A stretch of DNA of 64,000 bases from the NCBI GenBank assembly GCA_024137785.1, contig JAHRHZ010000058.1, positions 30,649,311 to 30,713,310 on the forward strand, read 5' to 3'. Origin of the DNA: Ginglymostoma cirratum (lineage: Eukaryota). A program made the position numbers and the translations under genes. Within the stretch, counting starts at the first letter, position 1, and the number at the start of each line of letters is the position of its first letter. Under the pieces are notes generated by a model that did no database searches, was not told the origin of the DNA, and was given only the letters and a program-made list of their open reading frames with translations. Shown here piece by piece: positions 18,097-54,559 of this stretch.

Positions 18097-18229
18097 TTAG
18101 AGACAAAAAAAACTGCAGATGCTGGAATCCAAGGTAGACAAACAGGAGGCTGGAAGAACACAGCAGGCCAGGTAGCATCTGGAGGAAAGGAGCATTTCAG
18201 GGATTACCCTTAAATGCTCTTTTCCTCTG
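18097..18229 (-). mobile_element. PLE 3'-end remnant with terminal hairpin
   Basis: ACTGCAGATGCTGGAATC...CACAGCAGGCCAGGTAGCATC motif shared with other copies; hairpin about 18179-18230. Confidence 0.7.
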
Positions 18230-21200
18230 GAAATCAAGGAGTTTTTTCATTAACACTTTCAAACTTTTAGACCATACTGGTTGTTTGTAAAGTCCTTAAT
18301 TAACAACCCACTCCATTAGTCTGTCCAAATAAGCCATATTGGATACTTTGACATGTCTGAGTATGGTAACGATTAAGCAATGGACATTGGAAATCTTTAG
18401 GGAAAAATTAGCAAGTCTCCAGAGTGATGGAATTTACAGGCAGGGTAGTTGTGTTGTTGAAGGGGTGCCGTGTTGATAGGTACATCTAAAGTTTGCTACG
18501 TCTATCTATTAAGTCTGTAATGTTCTTGTAGGAGTCTGCTGGTATACTGAGGCCAGGCTGTTGGCATTTGAATCTGAACCTCCGGAGTTTGGAGATGGAA
18601 ATCGCTCTCTCACTGATACCTTATAAGGGTCACTTAAAAATAAGTCAACTTGGCCTTAGTGGGAATAATGTAGAATAGTACCCCGGGTGCTTGAATAAGT
18701 ACAAATATTTCTTGAACGAGTATATTTTACTAACTACTACAGCTCTTTTCAACAAAGGATGAAGTTTAGCTTTTGTCTTAGCTTTGCGCCAGCTCTCCCT
18801 ATTCTCATTATGAGGTACACAGGTTTATGACCAAATTTATGCAAATGATAAAAAGAATTAGTCCGGTGACAAACCGCAAGAGCTTCCTTGAACAGCTGTG
18901 TGATTGTGCTTGTTTTTTTCGATGTCCCTCAATACCAGGAGTGCTTCCAGTGTTCAGCTGCTATGCTACTGTTGCTGATTATTCCTGCATAGCAAAAAAC
19001 CTATGGAGTATAGTCATTGCAAATGCTCTTTGTAGTCAGAAAGATGTGGGTAGGATGAAAGTAATACTTTTTGTTAGCCATTGTCTTCTGTGGTTAAATC
19101 TAAGCTTTTGAAGTACGCAGGCCTGCTGCCGTGGCTTTCGGTGTTTCATAGTGGTTAGCTTCAGAGTAGGCTATTAAGATAACTTGTACATTTCACAAAT
19201 GGCAGTGTGGAACTGAAGTGTAACTTGCTTGCTTTTTGGTCCAAACACAGTCTGGACCAAAGTTGCAAACACTTGATCTGAGAGTAACATTTGGTGGTTT
19301 TTCAGCCACCATGGAATTTTGGAAGCATTTTAAACTCTTTCCTTCTCTGAGGATGATGATGCAAATCAGACATGTGAAGTATCATATATTGGAAATTACA
19401 AAAGTAAATGCTGTCCTTGCTGATATCCCCCTGATAATATTCCAATGCAATCGATGGAGCAAATATTTCGGGATACAACAAAAAAAAATCAGTGCTGTAT
19501 TCAAGTAGATTGTAAACTCCAGCGGTAGTGATAACTGGAATACAAAATGGGCAAAACCTAACTTGTAGAATAATTGTTAGGGTGCTGCATGCAGAGTGAT
19601 GGCTAGAATTTGGTACCTTTTTTTAAAGTTCAACATTTCTTTCTGATATTTTTGCCAAAAATGTTAATGACCAAAGCAAATATCTACACAGTGGGCTGAA
19701 TGAAAAGAACTTTGAGCTGTTTCAGTGTTATGAGAGGAAACGTTCTATTACTATTTTCTACAGCCTTCAAACAGGATCTTTTAAATTGGTGACTTACCTG
19801 TTTTATGACACTGCTTTTCATTTTATTGGTTTCTCCAAGTCAGCCCTTTGCACCCCCTCCCCCCACAGCACCTCTTAAGAGAAGGAGAACAAATTAAGTA
19901 TTAAGATTTGTTATGAAGGATGCACGTTTGAACGAGCTGTAATTAGTGCCACAAAATGCATCCTTGGAAACGGATGTCTGTGAACTTTCTGGTTATTGTG
20001 TAGACAGATTGGCATCACTGATTACTGACAATTTGATGGCATCTTTTCAGTTCAGAAAACTTGCTGTTTCGTTTTTCCATTAATATAACATTGCTTTGTT
20101 AAATTTTCAGTTTCTTCCAACTTTATTGCATTATAACAAGTTGGGTTCATGGGGTGATTGTTTTGGTTGATCTAGAGTAGTTGAAACACAAAACTATTAA
20201 AATCCATAAGCTGATTGTTCCACAAGAGTGGCTGATATCACAGTTCACAACAATGATGGTTCTTGTTTTGCAGAATGAATGCTTCAAAAATGTCTCCGGA
20301 AGAGAGACAAAATGTTAAGCAAATTGTCTTTACTCCTGTGAGAATGCATCCTCGTGAAAGATAGTATTGTTGTTTGTTACCTAGCAGAAAGCAAAAGAGG
20401 ATTTGTGTGATTTACTAAAAGGCTTGTTTATTTATTTATTTTAACAGCTTGGAGTTACTGATGTCTAGTCTAGATTGGATTCTCATGGATTTTATTCATG
20501 AGCCAGAATTCACCACAACAAAGATAAAATTTTAGTTTCTTAGATACTGCAGCCCCTTTTTTTAGCCTTAAAGAATTTCACCAAATTTAATGCATTTGCT
20601 CTACAGAAGACAATGGAAACCTTTACATGCTTGACTAGTTCTTCCCTCATTCAATCCAAATGAAAGTTGGATTGTTTTGTATAGAGTAACATTCGTTAGG
20701 AGACAGTTCCCCATAACATCCTTCCAAATAATGCAATGATTTATCTCTCTCCTTGCTATCGTCTTCGGGTGCACCATCAGTGCAATCTTAGCCAAAAATC
20801 AGAGCTGGACTAAATTTTTTAAAACAGGAATTTTTTTTTAGTGGTGAATGGAAGCAATTTGGGAGACAGTGCCATTTTGTATTTCAGGAGTTAATTTGTT
20901 CTTAACTAACTGAAAGAAATTCATAGTAATTTGACTAGTATGACTGGATTATTGAACTAATAATTACAATGTTTCTATTTCATGAATAATAAATTCATTA
21001 AGTCTATGCAAGAAACTTTGCTTAAAGCATTTCAATATATTCACATTTCTGTCTAAAAGTATCTTTAAAGAAAGAAAAAAGATATTTGTCCTGTCATCAA
21101 TGACATAATCTGAAACCCATTGTAACCTTAACCTTAAAATTGAATTTTACGAAGAATTATTTGAGGTACCTAAATACTCAAGGCTGTGATTAATTTGCCT

Positions 21201-21400
21201 TTTTCAGTCATAATTGAAGGAGCATTAGAATTTGATATACATCCCCACAGGTACTAAGTTATGAGCAAGAGCAAGCACAGATAGCACAGATCACTTACAA
21301 TGTTTGTTAGTTTCAGAATTTCTATGTCATCAGTTCCTTCAACTAATGGATTTACAACTGGGTTATTTTCTGTTACTATGTATTTTTTTTTCTCAATGAT

Positions 21401-51935: not shown

Positions 51936-53865
51936 TACCTTCTGATACCATGGGTACGATTTCTAGGATCTGATGACCACTTTCAGAAATTTATGGACAA
52001 CACACTCAACAGATGGAATTTTCAATGTAAAACCGTGTGGGTCGAGAGTCTGCTAGTGTGTCCATGCATATTATTACTGTATTCCTCCTTCCCAGCCCAC
52101 TGTGAATTCCAAAGACAATTTGGTTCATTCTGTGACTGAAAGTGGATGACTGATCAGAATTTTGTTGTGGAATGGCACTACCATGGGCAGAGTCTGCTTT
52201 TGATGTCAGGAAAGACTTAAAAGTAAATGAAGTAGTTGCAATGATTGAGATCTCAAATCCTAAAAAAAGTTTATTTCAAAACTTGGTGAAAGATGAGATT
52301 ACAAGTTGGCAGATTTTTAACCATTGATCCATGTTTATTGCACACTGGTTGAAAATAGTCGCATTCTGGGGGATATCTCTTGCTGGAAATGAACACTGTT
52401 CATTGAAAAACTTATAGTTATTTAAATCTAGCTTATCTCCAATATCAATTTTTAAAAACTTTCTTGTACTTCTTTGGTTGGGCAGACCCGATATGCAGCC
52501 TTGAGTGAAAGTTTCTTCAACCCTTGCCTCATTTGCATATGAATCTCTATTCAACAGTTAATGTCCGTTACAGACAGAGTGCTCAATTCTTGTTTTCTGT
52601 AAGCTTGTTGTAAAATGTCAGTCTGTCACTTGCAATATAAAAAAGCAAAAATGATGGCATTTGTAAAAATGTTATCACCTCATAAACACAAATTATAAAG
52701 ACATGAAAGCGATCTCTGCCATGCTTTCAGTGGGAGTTAGTACAGCTGCCTTTTTTTTAAAAAAAACAGTTGTCCAGATTCCCACAGCTCACTACTAATA
52801 GACCAGTATACACAAGCACATTTAATTCAGAGTTCCCCAAATTAACATTTAATTTACATAAGATGTGACACCCTGTACAGCATAGACTTGTTCTCTGCAA
52901 TGTGCTCTGAAACTTCAGCAATTAATTTCAAACTGGTCCTTCACATATTTACAACTAAAATTGAGGCACAGTTAACGTATATTCTTCTAATTAATAAAAT
53001 ATGTTATTAAGACCACTAGCTGTCATTTACAAAAATTAAGTTGTTGGATACAAACTTCATTCATCATGCTTGTAAATAACGAAGAATGTAAACACTTGTG
53101 TTTAGTATGAGTATTATACAGCAATCAACTGTGCTAGAATTTGGATCATAGATCAAAAGTTGTAGCAATTTTGTTAGAGCAGCATGGAATAGCTGTTTTA
53201 TATGGAGACTGGTTAGTATGCTTTACTGGATTTGATTTATTAACTTGAAACACATTAAGCTAGGAAACAACACCTCCCCTTCTCCATCAACCCCCATCCG
53301 ACCTCCACCCTTCATCCGCAACAGTCACAAGCTTTTTGTGACTTCCTAAGCCCACCAGATACCAGCATCTGAGAAACTGTCCCTTCCGTCAATTTTGTGA
53401 AGGTGCTTATTCAGAAAGAAGGAGAACGGACAAGAACGTCGTCATGTGTTTCTGTTACAAACCTGGGTGGGCAGCAACCCCAGCACAGGCCACTTTGTAT
53501 GAAGTTGTAGAGCATAACACACAGACTGGAAAAATAACTGAAACAAAATGCAATAAGTGTTGACCAGAGGCTTTAAAAGAGAGTTTATCTTTATGGAATT
53601 GTATAGGTTGTAATCCAGACTTGATGTGTCAAGGCCATTGATGAGATCTCCCAAAACATGGACAGTGTAAGGGCTGAGAAAGATTTTCAAATATCTGGTG
53701 TGGCAGATGATGCATCAGAATTTTAATGGTTAACTTTTGTGTTGTGCATCCAGGTGAACTTTGTTTAATTTCAGTAGAATTTCAAAGGGTGTAACTTAAC
53801 CTGGAGTGGAAATTGGCTGGGGATGGTGGATCAAACCTCCTCAAGCATAGCAGTATTCACTCAGA

Positions 53866-54010
53866 GATAATAGGTACTGCAGATGCTGGAGAATCTGAGA
53901 TAACAAGGTGTGGAGCTGGATAAACACAGCAGGCCAAGCAGCATCATAGGAGCAGGAAATCTTGACGTTTCGGGTCTAGACCCTTTATCCAGCTCCACAC
54001 CTTGTTATCA
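53866..54010 (-). mobile_element. PLE foldback element
   Basis: TSD CAGTATTCACTCAGA 53851-53865 / CAGTATTCATTCAGA 54011-54025; perfect 26-bp inverted arm 53899-53924 / 53984-54009. Confidence 0.9.
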
Positions 54011-54559
54011 CAGTATTCATTCAGATTACTTTAACTCTCACGTCTCAGTTTATGTCATCTGGCTGTTGCCTGTGCAAAACACATGGAGGCTGGCAGGTAC
54101 TCAATGGTCAGGAACGTATTTAGTGAATCAGGTTTATTTTATTTATAAAAATTTTTAAAATCTGTTGGTCTCTATGGACCTTGTGCGGCTTCCAATCCTC
54201 ATTTAGTTCTTCATTTGGCAGGAAAGCCACGTCAGCAGCTTTTCCCAGGCTACAGAGTAAAATAGTCATCATGCCTCAATGATGAAAGACCCTTCCTCCT
54301 TCTTTGAGACCAATTTAAAATAGAGAACAATGGGAATGGAACCAGATACCAATAAGTAAATCTCAGGTGGCTGGGTTTGAAATTGCTTTTGGGGAGCAGA
54401 GCAGAAGGGAGACAGAGCAGACTCGTGATCAATGTTTTTAAATCCTGAGTTAGTATCAACCTGTGTCATGCAAAAGCCTTTTTCATTGTAATGTATGGAG
54501 GTTTACCTCAGAGCAGGAAACACCCCCAATAAAGGAATCTCTAATCTGGAATCTAATCA

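Follow-up and report, generated by a model that had tools for sequence, protein, structure and literature searches.

What gives rise to short inverted repeats that carry hammerhead ribozyme motifs, end in similar ways and lie dispersed along a stretch of shark DNA? The question is raised by a window of 64,000 nucleotides (nt) of Ginglymostoma cirratum (contig JAHRHZ010000058.1, positions 30,649,311 to 30,713,310 of the forward strand; coordinates below count from its first letter), in which such repeats occur between 18097 and 54025. We consider it probable, at about 0.82, that the copies are separate, heavily 5′-truncated, hammerhead-bearing 3′ ends (pseudo-long terminal repeats, pLTRs) of an autonomous Penelope-like element (PLE), and that the mirror arm is likely made anew at each insertion. 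They are likely ordinary stump insertions of such an element in a shark gene, and the novelty is low: a PLE expansion in whale shark introns is already published (10.1101/443036), and in 2014 minimal hammerheads paired on opposite strands at a distance of 100-700 bp were interpreted as truncated PLEs (PMC4209133).

Self-comparison and profile searches delimit 12 related loci in about three subfamilies, where an initial annotation had counted about ten copies in several subfamilies; three of the loci are weak matches (30860, 48960 and 51750; nhmmer E 0.005-0.7). Five of the 12 are two-armed, and a further two carry short snap-back pieces. Four two-armed copies are central here. The foldback at 53866..54010 belongs to the young subfamily A; its tail-bearing arm (53866-53984, minus strand) ends inside the hammerhead core, its tail-less arm (53985-54009, plus strand) measures 25 nt and its unpaired tail 33 nt, and it is flanked by a target site duplication (TSD) of 15 nt with one mismatch (53851-53865 / 54011-54025). 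At 44871..45012, also subfamily A, a short tail-bearing arm (44871-44925, minus) is joined to a long tail-less arm (44926-45012, plus) that starts inside the core, with a tail of 34 nt and a 14-nt TSD with two mismatches (44857-44870 / 45013-45026). The third foldback of this subfamily, 42254..42929, consists of a tail-less arm (42254-42438, minus) and a tail-bearing arm (42439-42929, plus) with a 38-nt tail and an exact TSD (14/14 nt; 42240-42253 / 42930-42943); because a gap of 400 N lies inside it at 42482-42881, its length and continuity are presumed. The older foldback at 40697..40939 represents subfamily B, with arms 80% alike, a complete core in both, a tail of 35-37 nt (taken as 37 nt) and a 12-nt TSD with two mismatches (40685-40696 / 40940-40951), its right edge having been placed partly from this TSD. 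Subfamily A arms are 89-94% alike in the four that were compared.

TSDs of 11-15 nt are present at five of the eight loci examined. With element edges fixed within 3 nt, the weakest TSD score was reached in 0.3% of 3000 random trials and the two best in 0, while with loose edges the two weaker scores are common by chance. The inverted arm, the tail of 33-38 nt and the TSD of 12-15 bp which had been described for these four copies were confirmed in each. Additional support comes from an empty site of the 53866 copy in a related organism (organism B), in which one contig skips 160 nt at 53860-54021 (2/4 runs, two studies). The skip equals the 145-nt element plus one 15-nt TSD, as expected of an empty site, and its flanks differ from the window at 4/161 and 17/180 letters; in neither of the remaining runs does a contig span the site. 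An assembly artefact is thereby ruled out for this copy.

The outer ends were surveyed in contigs of these four runs (two organisms, four studies) aligned to 53700-54200, with 7,819-29,693 contigs per run. The organism-B runs contribute 23,764 and 29,693 contigs, which points to a very large dispersed family; summed contig depth is not taken as a copy number here. No run is listed as RNA, although X16 may be one. In the 24 best of 693 rows, the best-supported outer loose ends lie at 53861-63 and 53897-99 (with a minor row at 53902), about 36 nt apart, in 4/4 runs; the contigs ending at the first and the second position, the minor row included, number 564/476 in run X2, 560/521 in X4, 276/114 in X1 and 192/136 in X16. 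Flanks at these ends are heterogeneous and A/T-rich (flank agreement about 0.4), with no poly(A) or repeat tail. Random tail lengths are thus excluded for the dominant ends. The fixed geometry proposed in the initial annotation holds for the outer ends; it does not extend to all copies, since the one at 21402 has a tail on both arms, the one at 29369 is tail-less with a TSD of its own, 45262 is a single arm and 18097 carries a short inverted piece. Mixed copies, with a tail on one arm only, make up 4/5, and against the 1:2:1 ratio expected under independent choice of start site this gives p 0.19.

The inner junctions behave differently from the outer ends. Counted from the first core base, the two arms start at +6/+67 in 53866, at +73/+4 in 44871, at -96/-22 in 42254 and at about -9/-3 in 40697. 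No two of these copies share both ends and the internal structure, the junctions differing in 4/4, and the inversion point is not fixed. Four copies with four different inner junctions imply that the foldback was not copied as a unit among the copies of the window. Two of them, 53866 and 44871, are joined in reciprocal forms at the same 6-nt complementarity, between core +2..+7 and body +67..+72; it is one of four such internal complementarities in the longest arm, and the chance of this coincidence is roughly 5e-5, estimated post hoc. The longer arm of both 44871 and 42254 is the tail-less one, which hence cannot be a plain copy of the tail-bearing arm in its present form. We had also considered that 5′ ends clustered at core +4 to +7 (44871, 45262, 53866 and 18097) might mark a start site; this reading was dropped, as the core/body complementarity accounts for 2/4 of them.

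The hammerhead itself is best preserved at 42311..42346 (minus strand), where a complete minimal type I motif with core, stem II and a 4-bp stem I is found, with a cut predicted between 42315 and 42314 from the standard hammerhead layout. A strict core pattern is passed by 5/16 stretches at the hammerhead position, namely this one, both arms of 40697, 29369 and a second stretch at 30120 (30120b). As the last matches only in a shifted register, there are four complete cores, or five if it is counted. The remaining 11/16 fail, one by running into the N gap; 44871 and 53866, both truncated within the CUGANGA core, have no complete one. The description of the copies as hammerhead-bearing therefore holds for a minority of the stretches in its strict sense. 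Stems I and II covary across subfamilies in a comparison of 12 stretches: of 92 cells 89% are paired, changes on both sides of a pair number 8, and none of 500 shuffles scored as high, with slid controls at 11-49%. An Rfam search at E up to 10 returned three matches, all below the gathering score and no hammerhead among them. The motif shares with the minimal metazoan PLE hammerheads (Cervera and De la Pena, 2014, PMC4209133) the lack of helix III, a 4-bp helix I and the extra base before helix II, and the copies share with them the occurrence of several sequence families per genome and of close opposite-strand pairs; sharks are not among the species named in the sections of that paper cited here, and the two supplements searched hold no shark or skate match.

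On every structural feature tested, the copies behave like a PLE insertion: an inverted 5′-truncated arm, a one-sided tail of 30-40 nt, a short variable TSD without poly(A) and a minimal type I hammerhead. An inverted 5′-truncated arm and a one-sided tail of 30-40 bp are described as general features of PLEs (PMC8557442; PMC3846280; PMC8969392), and the same arrangement with a TSD is known from rotifer and other PLEs (PMC8557442; PMC3846280), as are a 34-bp repeat and inverted termini from Drosophila (PMC2377424). The suggestion of a Penelope-like origin is supported by this agreement. Compared to endonuclease-positive (EN+) PLE insertions (Craig et al., 2021, PMC8557442; Arkhipova et al., 2013, PMC3846280), the window copies have in common the head-to-head truncated arm, the one-sided 30-40 nt tail, the short TSD and the hammerhead in the terminal repeat, while their arms are too short to leave any body of an open reading frame (ORF) and their TSDs measure 11-15 nt, versus 8-10 nt in the rotifer examples. 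A cause for the tail may be found in the Poseidon element of Anolis carolinensis, PAc (Frangieh et al., 2024, PMC11167929), whose protein, acting preferentially on A/T-rich DNA, nicks each target strand and extends it and has two reverse transcription (RT) start sites at a spacing equal to the 30-40 nt tail. Both systems show A/T-rich flanks and, downstream of a minimal hammerhead, two end positions separated by the length of one tail; the window copies are known as DNA without a protein and are likened to PAc by structure. The view of the copies as a stereotyped integration product is supported by this correspondence, the ends of the family in relatives being bimodal at a distance of about 36 nt.

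Membership in PLEs rests on structure, because no parent with a reverse transcriptase or GIY-YIG domain was found. Searches with peptides derived from the repeat, which as non-coding queries are weak, gave no parent among 106 candidates, none among 1.84 billion representatives and none in a further search with one candidate, an alignment consisting mainly of unrelated flank having been set aside; in one peptide search 4/13 matches are short, mis-predicted whale shark gene models of 80-132 amino acids with no RT. DNA pattern scans gave 0 matches in viral contigs (two scans) and 0 in prokaryote genomes. Six loci matching in metagenomes share only 21-22 nt and were rejected as chance matches. No long copy of the form pLTR-ORF-pLTR is present within the window. 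Literature searches, which did not cover most subscription papers and bioRxiv supplements, yielded no account of the present shark family, none of PLE twin priming and none of cut-site junctions in PLEs.

These data may suggest a mechanism in four steps. An endonuclease of the element would nick the target with a stagger of 12-15 nt, which is the observed length of the TSD. Reverse transcription would then be primed from both target ends, on one at the terminal start site and on the other 33-38 nt further inside, leaving a tail on one side; the two end positions are observed here and in relatives, and the proposed cause follows in vitro work with the anole enzyme. Each cDNA ends after about 25-190 nt, and the two would finally be joined through short complementary stretches, with the same core/body pair used in two of the observed junctions. 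The products have no ORF for reverse transcriptase or endonuclease and are predicted to be inert. In L1 elements, 5′ inversions arise by a comparable twin priming, in which both target ends prime cDNA, the strands are joined at microhomology and a TSD surrounds the whole, as in the window copies; the second primer of L1 anneals at variable internal sites, whereas the window copies have a fixed second start and arms with overlapping sequence. Two-ended priming would account for unequal arms in either direction and for tail/tail copies such as that at 21402, and given an origin as PLE stumps, we cautiously prefer it.

Under the same origin, a single cDNA (or an antisense RNA) could instead fold back and prime itself, with endonuclease resolution setting the tail boundary and later deletions of the centre leaving unequal arms. 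Self-priming was proposed in PMC3846280 and endonuclease resolution in PMC8557442. The arms of 53866, identical at 25/25 positions and sharing a variant rare in the family (place 53922), the identity of 43/43 between the arms of 42254, and the short snap-back pieces at 18097 and 29369 would all fit such folding, and a deletion of the centre would likewise be guided by the core/body repeat. Fold-back requires, however, an extra deletion in 2/4 copies to leave the tail-less arm longer, and the halt at the tail boundary would need an explanation of its own, whereas in vitro both boundaries coincide with RT start sites. We regard it as the less probable of the two routes where a PLE origin is granted, and as possible but doubtful overall; both may operate. 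A non-autonomous ribozyme-bearing mini-element, retrozyme- or MITE-like (MITE, miniature inverted-repeat transposable element), with a foldback that PLE enzymes copy in trans as one unit, appears improbable. The repeats are short, very abundant and fall into several subfamilies, some organism-B junctions have a depth of 400-820 versus 9-12 for single copies, a tandem hammerhead lies at 30211-30272, and PLE-derived retrozymes exist in a chondrichthyan (10.64898/2026.07.22.740005), all of which would fit such a unit. Yet no two window copies agree in junction and orientation, and 2/4 lack a complete core, so that the non-autonomous ribozyme-containing family with a fixed foldback, as once suggested, is unsupported for the copies of the window. 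Non-LTR retrozymes (Li et al., 2026, 10.64898/2026.07.22.740005) are likewise short, non-coding and pLTR-derived, with a type I hammerhead and chondrichthyan occurrence; they are defined as at least two direct tandem units with a complete hammerhead each, whereas the window copies are dispersed inverted pairs, and the only duplication seen, at 30211-30272 (32 nt, 1.9 copies), has damaged cores. The copies are not a retrozyme. Most improbable of all is a non-PLE element (a DNA-transposon MITE, a SINE or a DIRS remnant) or an assembly artefact: terminal inverted arms with a TSD, the assembly gap in one copy and the missing coding parent would be compatible with it, while the asymmetric ends without poly(A) or repeat tail, the variable TSD of 11-15 nt, the progressive 5′ truncation and the covarying minimal hammerhead argue against a non-PLE element, and the empty site against an artefact.

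Several points weigh against separate PLE stumps with newly made mirror arms. The rows in which the stems covary are related sequences and the structure was drawn by the analyst, folding energy is no better than in shuffles (7 sequences, z -1.0 to +0.5), and neither the protein searches, weak for non-coding queries, nor the DNA scans returned a parent. The loose-end counts do not let the pairing of ends within one insertion be seen. The identical arms of 53866 with their shared rare variant fit one template molecule or fold-back copying equally well, and a perfect self-primed palindrome, if its centre was afterwards deleted between these same short repeats, would yield identical junctions. In organism B, a few junctions at 45-70 times the single-copy depth indicate that some composite forms were amplified as units there. 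As found, the PLE stumps matter little, adding shark examples to a described insertion signature. The family is huge, and 150 bases are enough to contain the junction together with the two ends; copies could hence be counted across a genome as tail/tail, tail/no-tail or no-tail/no-tail, and such a count would discriminate two-ended priming from fold-back.

The joints of organism B raise a further question, namely whether shark PLE copies record in vivo self-cleavage by the hammerhead, with the reverse transcriptase running off the 5′ end of ribozyme-cut RNA and switching template, so that the junction falls at the scissile bond. We put this forward tentatively. Among the 12 joints listed, of 29 with letters between the joined parts, nine, all in organism B, exit the element at the scissile bond as predicted (53963/53964) or a single base past it; every listed organism-B joint that leaves the element beside the ribozyme (n=9) is at the cut bond or one base off. 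Two junctions were seen in both runs, which reduces the nine rows to seven distinct ones. They continue at 53909, 53911, 53916 or 53922-53923, thus at no fewer than four destinations (at least 4), and for 53909 and 53911 the letters between match known variants of the family, for which reason they are read as head-to-tail jumps. Junction depths range from 20 to 820 versus 9-12 for single copies, and the chance of four independent junctions at the named bond is roughly 5e-5. Against this reading, 0/16 stretches of the window start at the scissile bond, the joint table favours joints close to a stretch in which organism B and the window copy diverge, it lists 12 of 29 joints and no joint type, and several of the rows may descend from a single amplified event. 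Organism-B junctions cluster at the cut site, whereas the anole RNA ends do not: that study, the only biochemical one, saw no RNA reads ending there and no reverse transcription of cleaved PLE RNA (PMC11167929), a process that is described as unclear in PMC8557442. If the reading holds, such junctions would show from in vivo material that cleaved RNA is reverse transcribed, and millions of bases of shark stump insertions would form a dataset on the role of the PLE hammerhead and on the priming of both ends.

Two other arrangements were seen in the same survey. At 53855-53898, organism-B contigs (1 and 3-4) run straight from a tailed end into a tail-less one of the opposite strand, which are abutting insertions with no target between them. 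In run X1, a joint at 53956-53989 can be read as the entire hammerhead duplicated in tandem (unit of about 40 nt, depth 71), like that at 30211-30272; hammerhead dimers of this kind could allow cleavage.

The other copies in the window are more varied or more decayed. The locus at 29369..29482 (minus) is a tail-less single arm of subfamily B with a complete core, a 7-bp hairpin at its 5′ end and an 11-nt TSD with one mismatch. A single tail-bearing arm of subfamily A at 45262..45384 (minus) ends inside the core and has no TSD of at least 10 nt; it is followed by 6 nt matching the tail-less boundary, which may be a vestigial arm, although this match is weak. The old two-armed copy at 21402..21735, with tails on both arms, has an arm identity of 83%, degenerate cores and no convincing TSD. 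At 18100..18232 (the 18097 locus, minus), a diverged tail-bearing arm has no significant TSD, and its inverted piece of 19 nt turns at stem II and stops far from the tail boundary. The tail-bearing arm at 30120..30325 (minus, upstream limit approximate) represents a third subfamily and contains the hammerhead duplication at 30211-30272. Degenerate related arms lie at 30860..30980 (minus, weak match) and 48940..49060 (minus, limits approximate), and an isolated degenerate hammerhead-like piece, a weak match, at 51748..51786 (plus).

The host gene is indicated by an exon for the DNA-binding domain of nuclear factor I (NFI) at 10275..10760 on the plus strand (PF10524, E 6e-26; PF03165, E 2e-12). 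The hammerhead-repeat copies probably sit in an intron 3′ of this exon, no later exon having been identified in the window. Upstream of the NFI exon, a short stop-free frame at 932-1210 could include an alternative first exon; it has no convincing Pfam match. The repeat is also embedded in four whale shark gene models, which took it in as coding sequence, wrongly or truly. At 44923-45012 it is open in a frame starting in the hammerhead core, like the anole element.

Further repeats are found in the window. An inverted pair at 35441-35563 and 36490-36612 (123 nt, 88% alike, about 930 nt apart) is unrelated to the hammerhead family; it shows no obvious TSD at its aligned ends and is possibly a DNA transposon remnant. 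Another short repeat family occurs at 22058-22157, 36386-36486 and 54558-54653 (76-85% alike), with one copy lying within the inverted pair. A decayed reverse-transcriptase fragment (RVT_1, E 0.002, below the cut-off) lies in 45885-47163, beside a 150-nt stretch that recurs at 2127-2275; these are probably remnants of a long interspersed nuclear element (LINE). The sequence at 28408-28602 is palindromic, with outer arms of 34 nt (82%) and a nested 21-nt pair, and may be MITE-like or a conserved hairpin.

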